The notes beneath the pieces are model-generated. The model was not told the DNA's origin. It did not search any database and saw nothing but the letters and a program-made list of their open reading frames with translations. Of a stretch of 39,999 nt of DNA, positions 3,065 to 39,010 are shown in pieces. The stretch lies in the NCBI GenBank assembly GCA_007123465.1, contig SKLB01000228.1, positions 1 to 39,999 on the forward strand. Direction: 5' to 3'. Source of the DNA: Spirochaetales bacterium (lineage in GTDB: Bacteria; Spirochaetota; Spirochaetia; DSM-27196; PWMO01). The translations under genes were made by a program, and so were the position numbers. The stretch's first letter is position 1, and each line of letters begins with the position of its first letter.

Positions 3065-4288
3065 ATGGCAGCGATAAAGAAGCACTCACCGCTACTCTAC
3101 ATCCTGTTGTTCATTCTGGCGCACTTCTTTCACCATCTGATGACCGCGCTGGTGGTACCGCTGCTGCCGTTCATCCGCGACGGCTTCGACTTGAGCTACG
3201 CCCAGTCCGGGTTGGTAGTGTCCGCCTTCACGCTGGCTTACGGAATCGGACAGCTGCCGGCAGGCTGGCTGGCAGACCGTATCGGACCGCGCTACGTGTT
3301 GACCGTAGGCGTTGCCGGTGTGGCACTCGCCGGAGCGGCGGTTGGGCTCTCGCAGCGCTGGGAAACCCTGATTATCTTTCTGATCTGCATGGGAATAGCC
3401 GGCGGCGGCTATCATCCGGCCGCGGCACCGCTGATCTCGGCTGCTGTCCCGCCGGCGCAGCGCGGACGCGCCCTGGGGCTGCATCTGATTGGCGGTAGCG
3501 CCAGTCACCTGGCCGCGCCGCTTGCGGGAGTCTTGATTGCCGGCTGGCTCGGCTGGCGAGCATCGTTCCTGGTACTTTCACTGCCGGTGCTGCTGTTTGG
3601 TGCAGCCCTCTTTGTAATACTGACTCAGCACGAGATCCGCGCCCGAGCCGGACGCGCTGCACGCAGCGACGCATCGATCAACGAGGAAGCCGAAACCCCT
3701 GCACGGCCGGCGCTGATTGCGGTCTTCCTGATCATGACCGCATCGGTTGGCGCGTTCACCGGGTCCAGCATCGCCTTTCTGCCGCTCTACCTGGTAGACA
3801 TCTTCGGGGTCTCGGAAGAGGCTGCCGCGGTGTTCCTCTCAGCCTTCTACGCAACCGGAATCTGGGCCTCGCCTCTGGGAGGCGCCGCCTCGGACCGTTT
3901 TGGCCCGCTAACGGTGTTCCTGATACTCGCGCTTGCTGTCGGGCCACTGATCGTTCTGCTGGCTGTGGCCGGCAGCTGGATAGTGGCAGCCCTGGTGATG
4001 CTCGGTGTTGGGATCACGCTCTTCGTGCGAATGCCGGTCTCCGAGACCTACCTGGTCTCTTCGGTACGCAGGCGCAACCGCTCTACGGTACTGGGTATCT
4101 ATTTTTTTGCCGGCATGGAGGCCAGCGGCGTCATTACACCCATTCTCGGTTGGCTCATTGACGTCTATGGTTTCCGCCGTGGTTACGCTTCGGTTGGCGC
4201 CCTGCTGACGCTGATCATTGTCTGCGGCTGCGTAGTCCTGCTTGGTCTCTCGCGCCGGGACCGCGCACGTCTACGGCTGCAGTCCTGA
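3065..4288 (+). CDS. MFS transporter
   Basis: 407 aa with about 12 predicted hydrophobic helices. MFS motif-A-like GQLPAGWLADRIGPR after TM2. Confidence 0.8.
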   Translation: MAAIKKHSPLLYILLFILAHFFHHLMTALVVPLLPFIRDGFDLSYAQSGLVVSAFTLAYGIGQLPAGWLADRIGPRYVLTVGVAGVALAGAAVGLSQRWETLIIFLICMGIAGGGYHPAAAPLISAAVPPAQRGRALGLHLIGGSASHLAAPLAGVLIAGWLGWRASFLVLSLPVLLFGAALFVILTQHEIRARAGRAARSDASINEEAETPARPALIAVFLIMTASVGAFTGSSIAFLPLYLVDIFGVSEEAAAVFLSAFYATGIWASPLGGAASDRFGPLTVFLILALAVGPLIVLLAVAGSWIVAALVMLGVGITLFVRMPVSETYLVSSVRRRNRSTVLGIYFFAGMEASGVITPILGWLIDVYGFRRGYASVGALLTLIIVCGCVVLLGLSRRDRARLRLQS

Positions 4289-32908: not shown

Positions 32909-32938
32909 TTGACAACCGAAATTGCGTTGCAGTACAGT
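32909..32938 (+). promoter_or_regulatory. Sigma-70-like promoter TTGACA-N18-TACAGT
   Basis: TTGACA at 32909-32914 and TACAGT at 32933-32938, in the 146-bp divergent intergenic region. Confidence 0.35.
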
Positions 32939-32948
32939 GAGAAACGTG

Positions 32949-32976
32949 TCAACAGCACTCTGTTCGATGCCGATAA
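32949..32976 (+). promoter_or_regulatory. Sigma-28 (FliA)-type promoter: TCAA-N16-GCCGATAA
   Basis: GCCGATAA at 32969-32976 matches the sigma-28 -10 consensus 8/8. TCAA at 32949-32952 matches TAAA 3/4. The ATG lies 39 nt downstream with a GGGAG RBS at 33002-33006. Confidence 0.5.
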
Positions 32977-33015: not shown

Positions 33016-34695
33016 ATGGAGCTCGAGCAGTACGGAGTCTGGGTCAAAGCGGGGCCTGAAGACGTAGCGGACGACAATGAAGAGATGTTCGCTCTCTCAG
33101 ACGTTGGTGACGACGTCGATCAGGACACGTTCGCTGAGTCGAGCCATCTTACCTCCGAAGAAGAGGATCTGCTGGCATCGCTCGAAGAGGAAGAGCCCGC
33201 TGCAGAGCAGCCCGCCGCTGTGGCAGAGTCCGCTGACGGCGATCAAGATTTTTCCTTTGATCTCGACCAGGACGACGAAACACTGGAAGACAGCCTCTCG
33301 CTGGATGACTTCACACTCGATGATATTGAGCTCGATGACATGTCGATCCCGGCCGAAGAGTCCGCAGCAACCGCTGATCTGGAGGATGACCTGAGCCTCG
33401 AGGACACCGCAGAGGAACTGCCCGAACTCGACATCGAAAGCGATGAAGGATTCGACGACCTCGACGCAGTCACGCGCGAGATGACCGACAACAGCTCCGC
33501 GCCGCCCGCCCCCGACGGCTCTCAACGCCCAGCAGCAGAACCGATCGGCGGGATAGAAAGCGAGCTCGCGTCAATCAAGGCCGAGCTCCAGGCGCTGCGC
33601 GAAGAGCTGGCCGAGATCCGCAGCGGTGCAGGCCCCGCCCCAGCCGACGCAACCGGCCCAACCGGGAGCGCTATCGACAGCAGCGAGGAACCGCAGATAA
33701 GTGCCGGGTTCTTTGAGGAAGACGAAGACGAAACAATCGCGCTCACCGATGATGAGCTCGACAACATCCTGAACACCGCAGAGTTTACCGAGGAACTGGG
33801 CAAACCAAGCGCAGTTGACGATGTCGATGAGGCCGAGCCAGCTACCGAGCCGCTCGAGCAGGCCGACCAGATCAGCCTCGAGCAACTCGATGACGTGGAG
33901 ATGATCGATCTCTCGGATGAATCCGGCGAGGAAGCATCGCAGTGGGAAGATCAGTCGCTGCACGGTGGTGACATTCTCGCGCCATCCAGCTTTGACGAAG
34001 AGATCACTCTGGAAGATGAAGACGACGCCGACCTTCAAGACAGCGAAACCGCTACTGAGCTCTTCGTTGGAACACAAAAGGACGTAGACGCGCTGGCCGA
34101 CATGGACATCGATAGCGAACTCGCGGGCATTGAAGAGCTGCGCGATGACGAAGATGACTATCAAGATGCTGCGCAGGAGACGGGCGCAGCGGAGTTGGAC
34201 TCGCTCGAGATAGACGTACTCGAAGCCGCCCCCGACGAAGACGAGTCTGCAGAATCTGCAGAGGATCTCTCATTAGACAGTCTCGATACGCTTGAAGCAT
34301 CCGGTGAAGAGTTGGAGCTGGCCGAAGCCGCAGATGACGAAGACCAAAGTGGTGGTCTCGAGCTGGATTTGGACGATATCGGCGATGATGCGCCGTTTGA
34401 TCTCAGCGACGAAGACGAGCTGACTCCCTCTTTCCAGGCCGATGACACCGAAGACCTGGACCTGGACATCGATCTGGATGAGGGCCCGCAGCAGCCGGCC
34501 GCTGAGGCACCATCAACAACGGAGTCGTTTCCCTCTGACCTGCGCGAAGAAATCCGCTCGGTGCTGCAGTACATGGACCAGCTGCTCGAGTCGCTGCCGG
34601 AGGAAAAGATCGAAGAGTTTGCGCGTTCAGAGCATTTCGAAGTATACAAGCGGCTCTTTGAGGAACTCGGGCTCGACGCGCCTGGTGCAGAGTAA
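33016..34695 (+). CDS. Polyacidic, low-complexity (probably intrinsically disordered) protein with one short coiled coil and a compact helical C-terminal domain
   Basis: 559 aa. About 36 D/E in the first 100 residues, and only 15 K+R in the whole protein. Recurring L-[DE]-[DE]-x-[LI]-[DE] units. ELASIKAELQALREELAEIRS coiled coil. Ordered-looking C-terminus DLREEIRSVLQYMDQLLESLPEEKIEEFARSEHFEVYKRLFEELGL. Confidence 0.8.
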   Translation: MELEQYGVWVKAGPEDVADDNEEMFALSDVGDDVDQDTFAESSHLTSEEEDLLASLEEEEPAAEQPAAVAESADGDQDFSFDLDQDDETLEDSLSLDDFTLDDIELDDMSIPAEESAATADLEDDLSLEDTAEELPELDIESDEGFDDLDAVTREMTDNSSAPPAPDGSQRPAAEPIGGIESELASIKAELQALREELAEIRSGAGPAPADATGPTGSAIDSSEEPQISAGFFEEDEDETIALTDDELDNILNTAEFTEELGKPSAVDDVDEAEPATEPLEQADQISLEQLDDVEMIDLSDESGEEASQWEDQSLHGGDILAPSSFDEEITLEDEDDADLQDSETATELFVGTQKDVDALADMDIDSELAGIEELRDDEDDYQDAAQETGAAELDSLEIDVLEAAPDEDESAESAEDLSLDSLDTLEASGEELELAEAADDEDQSGGLELDLDDIGDDAPFDLSDEDELTPSFQADDTEDLDLDIDLDEGPQQPAAEAPSTTESFPSDLREEIRSVLQYMDQLLESLPEEKIEEFARSEHFEVYKRLFEELGLDAPGAE

Positions 34696-34698
34696 GCC

Positions 34699-35768
34699 AT
34701 GAAGACCGAAGGACTGCTGCGCAGGGCGATTCGCATTCAGAATAGCGGCAGCCCGAGCGGGGCTGCTACGCCGTCGCACGCCCAGGTTCAGCCACAAAAA
34801 AAAAAGCGCTCGCCGAGCTTCTCCGTGAGGCGCCTGCGGTTGACCAGCCGGTCGAGAACCTCGATGCGGAAGCTGCAGTTGCCCACCTGCTGAGAGAGTT
34901 TGAGACTATCCACACCGGCTTCGACGCGCCGGTACGCGTGTTCTCACTGTTGTGCCGGGATCTCGGGATAGAAAAAGGTGCATTGCTCCTGCCGGACTAT
35001 GACGGCGTACATTTTGCGCCGTGGGCTCTGCGCGGTATCGACAGCACCTCCGAGCGGCGCATGCAGATACCGTCAGCCATGCTGCAGGAAATGTGTGATG
35101 TCACCGCGGTTGATATCCTGCAGGCTGAACGCCTCGAGCCGTGGCGGCGCTACTTCTCTTTCCGCGAAGGTTCAATGTTGAAGCATCTGGCGCTGATCCC
35201 ATTCTGCGTTGACAGCTCGCCGTTGGCAGTGATCCTTATTGCAGCCAGTCCCTACCTGCAGGTCGAACACATCGCTATTCGCCTGATTGTCTCAGCAATT
35301 CGCGAGCGCGCACTCGCTCTGATTCTGCACGATCATGAAGCCCGCGTACGGGCCCGCTTCCGTCACGTACTGAGCGCGCACAACGACATTGTGCAGCGTA
35401 TCAGCGAAGAGCTCGAGCGACCGGATGTCACCTCGGTCACTGCGGTGGTAATCGAAGTGGCAACGCTGCTGACCGCAGTCAGCGACAGTAACCATGACGC
35501 TGATCGATATCACCTGCAGCAGGATCTGCTGCGGATAATTGGATCGATGGTGGAGGATAGTGCCACAGCCGGCCTGTCGGCGCCGGGCAGGATTGTGCTG
35601 ATTCTGCAACCAGGCCTTGCGCTGGGTCCGGAACTGCTGGTTCACCAGCTGCAGTTGTCGTTGGCGGAGCTGTTTCAGGAGCTGCCCCAACCGATTGACC
35701 TCAAACCACGCTACAAGACAATAACGCGTGACGTAGCTGCCGTCGACGAACTGCTGTCTTCACCCTGA
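34699..35768 (+). CDS. GAF-like domain protein split at an A10 tract (ORFs 34699-34893 and 34938-35768). A continuous 356-aa product requires a -1 shift at A_AAA_AAG
   Basis: ATG lies 3 nt after the upstream stop. After the A-tract, the -1 frame reads KKKALAELLREAPAVDQPVENLDAEAAVAHLLREFETIHTGFDAPVRVFSLLCRDLG... straight into the 276-aa ORF. The 0 frame instead gives R/S-rich junk and stops at 34893. The -1 frame is closed upstream by TAG at 34743 and has no ATG/GTG/TTG before 34938. Confidence 0.5.
34796..34805 (+). repeat. A10 homopolymer (slippery tract) inside a coding region of a high-GC genome
   Basis: Ten consecutive A, read in frame as CAA AAA AAA AAG, which contains the heptamer A_AAA_AAG at 34800-34806. 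Confidence 0.9.
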
Positions 35769-35783: not shown

Positions 35784-37355
35784 ATGATCAAAATCATGCA
35801 CGCACGCAACGGACAGCTCGCGGCTCAGGCCGACGGCAGGGCGCTGTATTCACGCTACGATCCGGCTGCCGAGGCGATGCGCTTTGTCAGGCGCGAACTC
35901 GCCGCAGCGCAACAGTGCACCACTGTCGTGATTCTCGGTGAAGGGCTGGGGTACCTCACGGCGGCGCTGCGCACTCTGCAGCCTGCTGCACGAATCGTTG
36001 CGGTCCATCTGAACGCAGCGCTTTTCGCCAGGCGAATCTGCGATGCCGATCAGCAGTGGTGCGTCGCAGAACCAGGACGGATCACCTTCGAGCAATTCCT
36101 CGAACAACAGATCGCCGATGAAGAGATCGACGGGCTGGTGTTGCTGACGTGGGAACCGTGCACGCGCGCATTTGCAGCTCAGGCGGAACCGATCGCGGCG
36201 GCAGTGCGCAACTTCCTCGATCAGCGCTCCGCCACTCTGGCCACCGAGCGCTATTACGGCGCACGCTGGATCAGTAACAGTGTTGTGAACGCAATTGAGC
36301 TGCAGCCGTTACCGCGTATCAAGGGCAGAAACGCTCCGGTGGCGATCGCGGCCGGCGGTCCTTCCCTGCCGGAGTCGTTGGAGCTGCTCAAGCAGCGAGA
36401 CCGCGGGGTATCACTCTGGGCGCTGCCCTCGGCGCTTCCCATTCTGTTGCACGCCGGATGCCCTCCCGATCTGGTTGTTACCACCGACGCCGGTTTCTAC
36501 GCCACACACCACCTGCGCCAGCTGCGCACCTGGCCAAACATACCTCTGGCCGCTCCGCTGTCGGCCGCGTTGATATTGCAGGTGCGCCGCCGCCCGACGC
36601 TGATTCTCAACCAGGGAAGCTGGTTTGAGCACGACCTGCTCTCCGATTGCGGTCTGCCGTGGGTTGCAGTCCCGGCGCACGGAACGGTAGCCGGTTCAGC
36701 CTGGTACCTGGCCGCCGCACTTGGGGCAACCGAAGTAGTGTTTGCAGGGTTAGACCTCTGCATTCGCGACATCCGGTCCCATCCGCGCGGCCATGCCTTC
36801 GAGCCACTGCTGTATAGCGGGGAGCAGCGGCTGCGTCCCTTGCACCATGTCCTGTTTGAGCGCAACGTTACAGCGAGCGAACGCATCGCAGCAGCATCGA
36901 TCGAGCGGACTTCGCGTGCGCTGCGCACGTACGCTGCCTGGTTTCGCGGCCACGCTGCCGCGATGCCAATTCCCGCTTCGCGCCTGGCTCCTTCACCGGT
37001 TGACACCGCTCTGGCGCCGTGTCACCGTCTGCCGCGCTGCGCCGATGCCGGGTACGCAGGCCCGGGGACACCGGCCGGTACCGTCGACCGCCGCCATGCG
37101 CTGCACCAACGTCTCTGCACCTGGCAGCTTCAGACAGAAGAGCTGAACTCTGCGTTCTGCACCGCTGGCACACAGCGAGATCAACAGCAGCAGCGCCTGC
37201 TGGCCATGGCGCGCACCGTTGACACCGCCGGATATCTCCAGGCGCTGCGAGCGCTGCGCAACAACGATCAGCCCGACAAGCGTGTGCAACGGTTGCAGCG
37301 GCGTCTGCAGCAGTTCTTTGACCACTTGCGGCGACGGGTGGAGCAGGCCGCGTGA
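35784..37355 (+). CDS. DUF115 / Maf (motility-associated factor, MptE-like) family protein, paralogue 1
   Basis: N-terminus ALYSRYDPAAEAMRFV, core PVAIAAGGPSLPESLELLK...PDLVVTTDAGFY...HGTVAGSA...GATEVVFAGLDL is typical of Maf-type putative flagellin glycosyltransferases. Confidence 0.7.
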   Translation: MIKIMHARNGQLAAQADGRALYSRYDPAAEAMRFVRRELAAAQQCTTVVILGEGLGYLTAALRTLQPAARIVAVHLNAALFARRICDADQQWCVAEPGRITFEQFLEQQIADEEIDGLVLLTWEPCTRAFAAQAEPIAAAVRNFLDQRSATLATERYYGARWISNSVVNAIELQPLPRIKGRNAPVAIAAGGPSLPESLELLKQRDRGVSLWALPSALPILLHAGCPPDLVVTTDAGFYATHHLRQLRTWPNIPLAAPLSAALILQVRRRPTLILNQGSWFEHDLLSDCGLPWVAVPAHGTVAGSAWYLAAALGATEVVFAGLDLCIRDIRSHPRGHAFEPLLYSGEQRLRPLHHVLFERNVTASERIAAASIERTSRALRTYAAWFRGHAAAMPIPASRLAPSPVDTALAPCHRLPRCADAGYAGPGTPAGTVDRRHALHQRLCTWQLQTEELNSAFCTAGTQRDQQQQRLLAMARTVDTAGYLQALRALRNNDQPDKRVQRLQRRLQQFFDHLRRRVEQAA

Positions 37356-39010
37356 ACATCCTGCAGAAGAATCTTGCCACGTTGTCCCTGCGGCATGCGG
37401 CGCTCTCAAAACGGCTGACAGAGCTGCGCCCGAGTTCCCGGGTGCGCTTCAGCGCCAGCCGTGCCGGACCGCTCTACGCGGTTATTGGAGACGAACGAGA
37501 GACCGCGCTGCACTCGCGCTTCGATCCACGCCGCGAGGCCTCACGGCTGGTAGCCGGCAGCCGCAGCTCGGGCTTCTGCCTCGTCCTGGGCCTGGGCCTG
37601 GGGTATCATGTCCGTGAACTACTGTGCCAGCCTCACCTCCAGCGTGCGCTGATTATTGAGTATGACGGCGCGCTGCTGCGCGCCATTCTCGAGCGGCAGG
37701 ATCTGAGTGATGTGTGGCAGGACAGTCGGGTTCAGCTCTATGTCGATCAAGCGCCACACGCCGTTGCCTCCGCTATTGCGCAGCACTACGTTCCGGTTCT
37801 TCACGGCAATCTTTCAACCCTGCTGTTGCGCGGCAGGTTTGACTGTGACCGAGCGCTGTTCAGCGATGCAGGGACAGCTGCTTCCGAGGCCGCCGAAGCT
37901 GCCGGTGCTGACCTCAGCGTGCAGCGCGTCTTTGGCCGCCAGTGGATGCGCAACATCATCACCAACAGCCTTGCCTGCCCGGTACAACCCGGCTTGCCGC
38001 GTTGCCGCAGCGCGATTGTCAGCGCAGCCGGACCGTCGCTGGACAACAAAATCGACGCCATAGCACGACGCAAAGCGGACCAGTTGCTGATTGCCACCGA
38101 TACATCGCTGCCGCGACTGCTGGGCGCCGGCATCCGGCCGGATCTGGTGCTTGCTATCGACTGCCAGCTGGCATCGTATCTGCACGTGCTGGCTACCGCC
38201 AAACAGCAGCTGACACTGGTAGCTGACGCCGGGGTCCATCCGGCGCTTACGCGCCGTTTTTCGGCCGTACATCTGATCGGCGGAGGCCATCCGCTGCTCG
38301 CTTATCTACGCACCGAGGGCGTCCCGATAACCTGGCTTGATACCTCCGACGGCAGCGTAACTCACGCCGCGGTTCGTCTGGCGGTCCAGCTCGGAGCCAA
38401 ACAGATCGAGGTCCACGGCGCCGATTTCTGCTATCCGCGCGGCAGCGCGTACGCCCGCGGCAGCTACATTCATAGTCACATGATCGGCCGTGCCCGGCGC
38501 ACAGTGCCATACGCCAGCGGTCTGTACCGCTTTGTGCTCGAGCGCCCCGAACTTGAACTCGACCAGATAGACGGCCACTGGGCCTACACCACAAAGGTGA
38601 TGCGTCACTACCACCAACGTTTTACAAATCTGCAAGCGGAACTAGGGGCGCGCATCGTACGCCCAATCGGCGGTGCGCGAATCGACAGCGGCACCGTGCA
38701 GTCCGGCGTGCAGGATCACCGCTGCAGCGAGCACGGCGCACCCGCGCCGCTGAACACTGCCGGCGACACTGCTGCAGGTAACGCTCACTCCGTGCTTGGC
38801 GCCTATCGCCGGGCGCTGGCACAGATCCCCACTGTACACGATCCGCTGTGGTTCTACTTTGATCAGAGCACGGCCGCCGAGCGGCGCCTGTGGCAGACGC
38901 TGTTTCCTCTGGCGGCGTTCTTCTCGGCTCAGTCAAGGCCCGTTGGAACCGCGGCGCTACTCGAACACACCCGCGATAGCGCACTGCAACTGCTCAAGCA
39001 GCTGGTATAG
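37352..39010 (+). CDS. DUF115 / Maf family protein, paralogue 2
   Basis: LHSRFDPRREASRLV, SAIVSAAGPSLDNKIDAI...LLIATDTSLPRLLGAGIRPDLVLAIDCQ...GSVTHAAVRLAVQLGAKQIEVHGADF. The GTG start overlaps the upstream stop (GTGA). Confidence 0.7.
   Translation: MNILQKNLATLSLRHAALSKRLTELRPSSRVRFSASRAGPLYAVIGDERETALHSRFDPRREASRLVAGSRSSGFCLVLGLGLGYHVRELLCQPHLQRALIIEYDGALLRAILERQDLSDVWQDSRVQLYVDQAPHAVASAIAQHYVPVLHGNLSTLLLRGRFDCDRALFSDAGTAASEAAEAAGADLSVQRVFGRQWMRNIITNSLACPVQPGLPRCRSAIVSAAGPSLDNKIDAIARRKADQLLIATDTSLPRLLGAGIRPDLVLAIDCQLASYLHVLATAKQQLTLVADAGVHPALTRRFSAVHLIGGGHPLLAYLRTEGVPITWLDTSDGSVTHAAVRLAVQLGAKQIEVHGADFCYPRGSAYARGSYIHSHMIGRARRTVPYASGLYRFVLERPELELDQIDGHWAYTTKVMRHYHQRFTNLQAELGARIVRPIGGARIDSGTVQSGVQDHRCSEHGAPAPLNTAGDTAAGNAHSVLGAYRRALAQIPTVHDPLWFYFDQSTAAERRLWQTLFPLAAFFSAQSRPVGTAALLEHTRDSALQLLKQLV

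Follow-up and report, generated by a model that had tools for sequence, protein, structure and literature searches.

A polyacidic protein of the TP0179/PF27359 family at the head of a flagellum-linked operon in spirochaetes, with a possible role in flagellin handling

The acidic gene, its promoter, and its operon

We investigated a polyacidic protein encoded in a 39,999-nucleotide (nt) stretch of DNA from a Spirochaetales bacterium (GenBank assembly GCA_007123465.1, contig SKLB01000228.1, positions 1 to 39,999 of the forward strand), referred to here as the window. The protein has 559 amino acids (aa) and, judging from its sequence, is a member of TP0179/PF27359, a family that is catalogued but uncharacterised. 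Its gene is predicted to be the first of a four-gene operon, in which it is followed by a GAF/GGDEF-like gene and by two homologues of the Maf flagellin glycosyltransferases. The features of the operon are listed below in window coordinates.

32949..32976, plus strand: sigma-28-type promoter (TCAA, 16-nt spacer, GCCGATAA), 39 nt upstream of the start codon
33002..33006, plus strand: ribosome-binding site GGGAG, read directly from the sequence, its last base 9 nt before the ATG
33016..34695, plus strand: coding sequence of the 559-aa polyacidic protein (TP0179/PF27359 family), an open reading frame (ORF) with an ATG start
34699..35768, plus strand: partner gene of the GAF/GGDEF-like family, beginning 3 nt past the stop codon of the acidic gene
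35784..37355, plus strand: maf1, Maf/MptE-like, 523 aa, isoelectric point (pI) 9.4 (PF01973, E = 7e-18)
37352..39010, plus strand: maf2, Maf/MptE-like, 552 aa, pI 9.5 (PF01973, E = 5e-26; weak Maf_flag10_N match)

The genes are closely spaced, with 15 nt between the partner gene and maf1 and a 4-nt overlap of maf1 and maf2 at the maf1 stop codon. The partner gene is interrupted by an A10 run at 34796-34805, which leaves two frames, one of 64 codons (34699-34893) and one of 276 codons (34938-35768). We compared the window with 80 related loci by tblastn of its neighbouring genes, which gave a conserved order of a divergent ftsB-like gene, the acidic gene, the GAF-like gene, maf1, maf2, and a convergent Memo-like gene. 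Downstream of the acidic gene, the GAF-like gene was found in 48 of these loci, maf1 in 68, and maf2 in 63. The first-pass annotation of this DNA, made from the sequence alone, had noted the gene at the head of a putative flagellar operon and left this position unexplained. The position at the head of a flagellum-linked operon holds, is conserved (68 of the 80 related loci), and in the end was the most informative feature of the locus.

The acidic protein contains 98 Glu and 95 Asp, together 193 of 559 residues (34.5% D/E), with 6 Lys, 9 Arg, and no Cys, for a computed pI of ~4.05 and a net charge of ~-178. These counts agree with an earlier estimate of one third or more D/E with 6 Lys and 9 Arg, and all of the acidic units quoted at that time are present in the translation, at residues 94, 122, 418, 448, and 481. 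A ranking of all six-frame ORFs of >=200 aa from its own genome (3,547 in total) puts it first by D+E fraction, at 0.34 against a mean of 0.10 and a standard deviation of 0.035. There are no DNA tandem repeats of note in the gene, and the low complexity is therefore compositional. No hydrophobic segment was found in the protein (maximum Kyte-Doolittle value over 19 residues of 0.44); therefore, it has no membrane helix and no signal peptide, and it is predicted to be cytoplasmic. We compared the gene to a 91%-identical orthologue and obtained a ratio of nonsynonymous to synonymous substitution rates (dN/dS) of 0.16 overall, 0.02 in the conserved islands described below, and 0.22 in the linkers between them. 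Because these values show purifying selection, the ORF is a real gene.

The promoter fits membership in the sigma-28 regulon, as it is of the TAAA-N15-GCCGATAA type, lies at a suitable distance from the start codon, is conserved in orthologues, and occurs in a genome that encodes FliA (295 bits). The pattern T(T/C)AA-N15/16-TGCCGATA(A/T), also written T(T/C)AA-N16-GCCGATA(A/T) as a variant, was found 35-50 nt before the start codon in 37/65 related loci. The window box matches the mapped sigma-28 promoter of Treponema denticola flaB2, which has a -35 element of TTAA and a -10 element of CCGATAA (PMC9481697). By itself, the 8-mer turns up in the window more often than expected (6 matches vs 2), but the full promoter pattern occurs only 6 times in the whole 2.7-Mb genome of the source. 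One of these sites, TTAA-N16-GCCGATAA on contig C190 (~4046-4073), lies ~300 nt upstream of a FlaB-type flagellin gene. A sigma-70-like match (TTGACA, 18-nt spacer, TACAGT; 10/12) was also seen at 32909-32938, ~30 nt upstream of the sigma-28-type box, so the operon could have two promoters.

The source genome encodes three FlaB-type flagellins, a NeuB/PseI-type synthase, and four Maf-like proteins. The two Maf proteins of the operon are basic here and in Treponema pallidum (+13 to +15; pI 9.4-9.5), and the flagellins are acidic, a complementarity of charge that counts in favour of the scaffold explanation given below. A FliM gene was not found in the source assembly, which is 75.6% complete, and the gene has more likely fallen into an assembly gap than been truly lost.

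Conserved islands in a disordered protein

A family alignment (A1) resolves the protein into a fixed series of conserved islands, between which lie acidic linkers of highly variable length. From the N-terminus to the C-terminus, the islands are an L-E-x-YGVWVK-x-GP box, LTxEEExLL, ELPEL, FDDxxAV, a coiled coil, GFFxEDEDETIALTGDELDNILNTAEFTEE, EVDALAxMDIDSELAxIEEL, and the C-terminal LPxDLKxEIRSVLxYMDQLLESLPEEKIxEFAxSEHFEVYKxLFEELG. The N-terminal YGVWVK box is found in members from the class Spirochaetia and is absent from deeper lineages. We modeled the full acidic protein with AlphaFold2 using a 20-sequence alignment and modeled its C-terminal 71 residues alone using 34 homologues. The islands map to the window protein as follows.

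33022..33066, plus strand: N-terminal box LEQYGVWVKAGPEDV (residues 3-17); Y6, G7, V8, W9, V10, K11, and P14 invariant in A1
33148..33189, plus strand: acidic amphipathic helix LTSEEEDLLASLEE (residues 45-58); E48-E50, L53, and L56 conserved; AlphaFold2 helix 47-55
33412..33486, plus strand: boxes EELPELD (residues 133-139) and FDDLDAVTREMT (residues 146-157), from alignment A1; AlphaFold2 helix 148-158
33544..33624, plus strand: coiled coil IGGIESELASIKAELQALREELAEIRS (residues 177-203); I180, L184, I187, and L194 invariant; AlphaFold2 helix 175-203 with a predicted local distance difference test score (pLDDT) of ~83
33706..33801, plus strand: invariant short linear motif GFFEEDEDETIALTDDELDNILNTAEFTEELG (residues 231-262), from family conservation
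34081..34146, plus strand: conserved box DVDALADMDIDSELAGIEELRD (residues 356-377), from alignment A1; AlphaFold2 helices 354-361 and 365-369
34528..34674, plus strand: C-terminal three-helix domain, the family-defining PF27359 region (residues 505-553); 18 invariant columns in alignment A2

Confident helices in the full-length model are limited to residues 175-203, 245-260, 354-369, and 507-550, and pLDDT falls below 50 for 374/559 residues, in line with the disorder anticipated by the first-pass annotation. The Ala/Leu heptad stretch that it had picked out is also present, as the coiled coil at residues 177-203. A search of the PDB with a whole-family sequence profile returned designed coiled-coil peptides as its sole matches (E = 0.0013). 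For the C-terminus, the earlier description of a small, ordered, and conserved domain was correct, but the helical hairpin was not, as AlphaFold2 places three helices there (residues 507-526, 529-537, and 539-550). The core of this domain, modeled alone, has a pLDDT of 88-91. No meaningful match to the domain was found in the PDB by sequence profile, and none by a Foldseek fold search of the model. No domain fusions were found among 35 long members of the family.

The invariant motif DEDETIALTGDELDNILNTAEF forms an island of its own between acidic linkers. In the form (D/E)ETIAL(T/S)xDELDNIL, it is present in 307/365 family proteins, mostly as a single copy and as a double copy in 17 proteins. 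A 988-aa homologue from a Leptospira-like genome of 4 Mb carries ~15 tandem copies, as EPIALSEDELGNLLS followed by an acidic spacer. The gene for this homologue (L092:8083-11049, minus strand) lies downstream of the ATP synthase operon and is followed by a gene for a 757-aa protein, with no Maf nearby. Outside of the islands there is considerable freedom, as the acidic linkers differ widely in length (271 to >1,300 aa) and in sequence. Selection thus acts on short motifs and a folded end domain and leaves the linkers free, a pattern that marks a scaffold for binding other proteins and that bulk charge alone would not produce.

Distribution of the family and its gene neighbours in Spirochaetota

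A search of 5.8 billion proteins returned hundreds of homologues of the acidic protein. Precomputed Pfam annotation places PF27359.1 in the protein itself and in all 240 listed homologues. Our own scans of the protein with Pfam-A (E <= 0.01), in a copy that does not include PF27359, and with NCBIfam (E <= 1) gave no match, and the literature searched makes no mention of PF27359. The first-pass annotation had asked whether the C-terminal domain belongs to a well-characterised family unrelated to flagella; it matches only PF27359, which is uncharacterised. Nearly all of the named homologues come from Spirochaetota, and two are labelled as Bacteroides/Prevotella metagenome bins. The annotation of the homologues reads "hypothetical" or, in several cases that follow JGI naming, "FimV," a label that is best explained by composition. 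A separate search with the C-terminal domain gave 1,739 representative clusters, with the domain always at the extreme C-terminus of proteins that range from 50-aa fragments to ~1,400 aa.

The profile of the C-terminal domain matches 336/401 sampled Spirochaetota genomes and 145/153 genera. Nearly all sampled spirochaetes thus keep the gene, Borrelia-like groups apart, and these include the agents of syphilis and leptospirosis. Maf (PF01973) was found in 388/401 of the same genomes and is missing from exactly three families, f7, f8, and f12 (13 genomes, 97-99% complete), which are also the three families without the acidic C-terminal domain. The evidence suggests that f7 is Borrelia-like. FliA is below cut-off in f7 and f12 and present in f8; since f8 has FliA and yet lacks both the acidic protein and Maf, absence of the protein tracks absence of Maf more than absence of sigma-28. 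This joint absence would agree with a functional link between the two but is not strong evidence for one.

The T. pallidum orthologue is tp0179, as identified by its neighbours gpmA, pfs, the Tpp15 lipoprotein gene, smpB, and tuf, and by a gene length of 1,884 nt, which matches the published length (PMC8789261). In published work, its product is a "hypothetical protein," and the locus has drawn attention for its recombination, for substitutions specific to certain lineages, and for a poly-G tract that lies 80 nt upstream (PMC8789261, PMC11371664, PMC7864442). The translation of the T. pallidum-like locus (L091) contains the internal DETIALTGDELNNIL motif, the coiled coil, and the C-terminal YMDxLLExLPEEKIxEFAxSE box, and tblastn of the C-terminal domain against this locus gives 76% identity. 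TP0179 also shares the N-terminal YGVWVK box with the window protein, and its gene sits in the same cluster, with a divergent ftsB-like gene, TP0179, a GAF-like gene, and two Maf genes. However, TP0179 is less acidic (19% D/E vs 34.5%), and unlike the window gene it has no sigma-28 box directly upstream. We also observed a 471-aa protein with a weak GGDEF match encoded after the two Maf genes in the T. pallidum-like genome (L091:2565-3980, minus strand), so the T. pallidum cluster holds two GGDEF-like or GAF-like proteins.

For a deeper comparison, we used 20 loci from other families of the phylum (the deep loci). The partner gene follows the acidic gene in 15/20 of them at ~-7 to 63 nt, mostly <=16 nt, and its product starts with MGL(L/R)xKAxxYR; the corresponding start is MKTEGLLRRAIRI in the window and MGLIARASRIRR in T. 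pallidum. In several deep loci, the partner has a GAF_3 match above the Pfam cut-off together with a weak GGDEF match. The 757-aa neighbour in the Leptospira-like genome has only sub-threshold GAF and GGDEF matches, and pairwise BLAST gave no link between it and the window partner gene. We assign it to the partner family because it shares the N-terminal motif, the position, and the domain content. With a GAF/GGDEF-like gene conserved next door across lineages, the two genes therefore form an ancestral, phylum-wide pair.

The genes that flank this pair differ between lineages. Maf genes adjoin the acidic gene in 5/20 deep loci. In 6 further deep loci, fliS (PF02561, E = 3e-38) lies directly upstream, at 20-24 nt in the two that were measured, and in 5 of these 6, fapA (PF03961, E ~1e-40) follows the GAF partner. 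This gives a second form of the operon.

Loci L131, L132, L133, L135, and L136 (other spirochaete classes): fliS, acidic protein, GAF/GGDEF-like gene, fapA; locus L127 has fliS only

A sigma-28 box was not found upstream of fliS in these operons. As two different sets of flagellin or flagellum genes flank the same pair, inherited gene order alone is a less likely explanation than it would be with one set. In the remaining deep loci, the upstream gene is ComEA-like or unrelated. Specifically, a small, membrane-anchored, ComEA-like protein with SLBB and/or helix-hairpin-helix domains is encoded just upstream in L128, L130, L134, L137, L138, and L139. These small membrane proteins are neither FtsB nor flagellar proteins.

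Candidate functions of the acidic protein

Our preferred explanation, to which we give a probability of roughly 45%, is that the acidic protein is a cytoplasmic, disordered, multivalent scaffold or adaptor that belongs to the late (sigma-28) flagellar programme and acts in flagellin handling before export, with the co-encoded proteins as putative partners. Under this model, the protein would dimerise or oligomerise through its coiled coil, and its motifs and C-terminal domain would hold the GAF/GGDEF-like partner and the basic Maf enzymes. In this way, it could concentrate or order the cytoplasmic steps in which a new FlaB is first glycosylated and then passed on to FliS and the export gate, and the GAF partner may couple flagellin handling to a small-molecule signal. 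Flagellin glycosylation is thought to be cytoplasmic and to precede chaperone binding (bioRxiv 10.1101/2020.06.03.131540).

There is a precedent for an accessory protein of this kind. In Shewanella, Maf-2 needs a small, adjacent, helical adaptor called GlfM to bind flagellin (bioRxiv 10.1101/2023.12.03.569772). Like the acidic protein, GlfM (S. oneidensis SO_3260) is a maf-adjacent accessory protein with a small helical bundle and no enzymatic domain. Bridging of Maf to flagellin was shown for GlfM in that study and is proposed here, by analogy, for the acidic protein. However, GlfM consists of 89 aa folded as a four-helix bundle, in which one Asp (D77) is conserved, and its gene lies downstream of maf-2. 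The acidic protein, at 559 aa, is ~90% disordered; its gene precedes the maf genes, and its ordered end domain has three helices. We therefore rejected the acidic protein as a GlfM on size, position, and fold; the analogy is functional and not one of homology.

Several observations weigh against a role in flagellin handling. Family f25 has Maf in 38/38 genomes and keeps FliA, but a recognisable acidic C-terminal domain is found in only 4/38, all with weak scores; the domain has been either lost or strongly diverged there, and Maf can therefore work without a recognisable family member. Furthermore, Maf and the acidic protein are both nearly universal, with losses that amount to few events, and finding them together therefore counts for little in statistical terms. 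In 9/20 deep loci and in the Leptospira-like genomes, the acidic gene adjoins neither Maf nor fliS/fapA, with the GAF partner as the only constant neighbour, and within a clade, inheritance alone can keep gene order. The sigma-28 box was not found upstream in T. pallidum or in most deep lineages. Additionally, the part of the T. pallidum two-hybrid supplement that we consulted (PMC2386257) lists no interaction of TP0179.

The constancy of the GAF/GGDEF-like gene could point to a signalling pair, in which the acidic protein and this partner would act as a sensor and effector module, responding for example to a cyclic nucleotide and tuning motility or some other process, and Maf, FliS, and FapA would be passengers of gene order. 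The partner is the sole phylum-wide neighbour (15/20 deep loci, T. pallidum, and the Leptospira-like genomes), and no flagellar gene adjoins the pair in the Leptospira-like genomes. However, separate lineages have flagellin-related genes next to the pair, either Maf or fliS/fapA; in addition, the sigma-28 promoter has been conserved, and the families that lack Maf lack the protein too. The GGDEF match is also below the Pfam cut-off, and any enzymatic or binding activity is putative. We regard such a pair as unlikely, though as the likeliest of the rivals. The presence of fapA in the same operon in 5 deep loci also raises the idea of a polar landmark or hub that self-assembles near the cell ends and recruits FapA, Maf, and FliS as cargo to the subpolar motors. 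In Vibrio, flagellation requires FapA at the pole. In the known hubs HubP/FimV and PopZ, high acidity and extensive disorder go together with a small helical module conserved at the C-terminus, multivalent recruitment, and a link to polar flagella, and the acidic protein resembles them in its acidic linkers, its putative oligomerising helix, and its C-terminal domain, as well as in the "FimV" naming of homologues. But that label is probably compositional, and identity with either protein was rejected: FimV/HubP because LysM, a transmembrane segment, and the FimV C-terminal motif are all missing (Pfam, NCBIfam, and hydropathy), and PopZ (DUF2497) because its C-terminal oligomerisation domain is missing (Pfam, E <= 0.01). 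A polar hub is an improbable answer. It is more improbable still that the charge itself is the function, whether to soak up cations or polyamines, to mimic DNA or a polyanion, or to act as an entropic spacer. These roles were put forward in the first-pass annotation and are still conceivable, as acidity is extreme and conserved (26-37% D/E across the tabulated deep homologues, and the most acidic ORF of the genome here) and the close relatives of the source lineage are soda- or salt-lake metagenome bins. They fit poorly, however, with conservation that is centred on motifs with free linkers (dN/dS of 0.02 vs 0.22). TP0179 keeps the motifs and the end domain at only 19% D/E, and the conserved operon and promoter context would be left without explanation. 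Least probable, in our estimation, is a substrate exported via the flagellar type III apparatus, similar to the disordered anti-sigma factor FlgM, that acts on the periplasmic flagella. Disorder, the lack of Cys, the sigma-28 promoter, and a fliS neighbour in some lineages would suit such a substrate, but sizes of >1,300 aa would be unusual for one, and the operon partners Maf and GAF are predicted cytoplasmic enzymes.

The invariant motif raises one further alternative, a multivalent CheY-binding scaffold that would buffer, localise, or relay the chemotaxis signal, with (I)ALTGDELDNILNTAEF mimicking the peptides at the N-terminus of FliM (LSQDEIDALL) and the C-terminus of CheZ that bind phosphorylated CheY (CheY-P). 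In 30 spirochaete FliM genes, the N-terminal peptide reads MTEVLSQDEIDALLTAIS, which the motif resembles, and the C-terminal peptide of CheZ resembles the motif as well. When profiles of the motif and of the N-termini of 18 spirochaete FliM proteins were compared by hhalign, the probability was 65% and P was 5.9e-5 over 13 columns; the score of 17.7 was higher than that of the reversed profile and of every one of 300 controls with shuffled columns (mean 7.7, maximum 15.3). The family motif, ALT(G/D)DELDNILNTAEF, aligns by profile with LSQxEIDALL, and both lie in flexible regions, although the FliM peptide is terminal and the motif internal. The motif lies in a disordered and accessible region of the AlphaFold2 model, no other element of the family is as well conserved, and one lineage has multiplied it to ~15 sites; a sigma-28-type promoter is also what chemotaxis and late flagellar genes have. 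On the other hand, a position matrix and a hidden Markov model of the FliM N-terminus did not detect the motif among the genome ORFs. In a BLOSUM scan, it ranked 15th-28th of 2.4 million positions, with unrelated enzymes as better matches. The pattern L-S/T-x-D-E-hydrophobic-D-x-x-L is also common at helix starts, the comparison was picked after the resemblance had been seen, and Borrelia-like genomes carry out chemotaxis without the acidic protein. With comparisons this mixed, we keep CheY binding as a lead, not a finding, and consider it improbable. If it were true, most spirochaetes would make, with their late flagellar genes, a CheY-P binder with one site, and Leptospira-like species one with ~15. 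This could mean CheY-P buffering in very long cells with motors at opposite ends, which would bear on the long-standing question of how the two poles are coordinated.

A scaffold for flagellin handling would bring together three independent kinds of flagellin-handling neighbour (Maf, FliS, and FapA), the sigma-28 promoter, and the GAF partner, and these features make the acidic protein a testable candidate for a missing factor that organises how flagellin is modified and exported. Spirochaete motility depends on periplasmic flagella, and a phylum-specific accessory factor would be of interest to flagellar biology. It would also show clearly, in a bacterium, how short linear motifs can make up a disordered scaffold. 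New in this work are the ancestral GAF/GGDEF-like pairing, the fliS/fapA context, the phylum tallies in which the protein and Maf are missing from the same families, the tandem motif copies of the Leptospira-like homologue, and the test of the FliM-like reading of the motif.

The T. pallidum two-hybrid data also bear on the putative Maf-flagellin step. In these data, FlaB3 (TP0870) scored once with TP0174 (PMC2386257). By our reading, TP0174 is a fragment of this cluster's Maf gene in the original annotation, and the score would then be a hint of direct contact between Maf and flagellin in a spirochaete.

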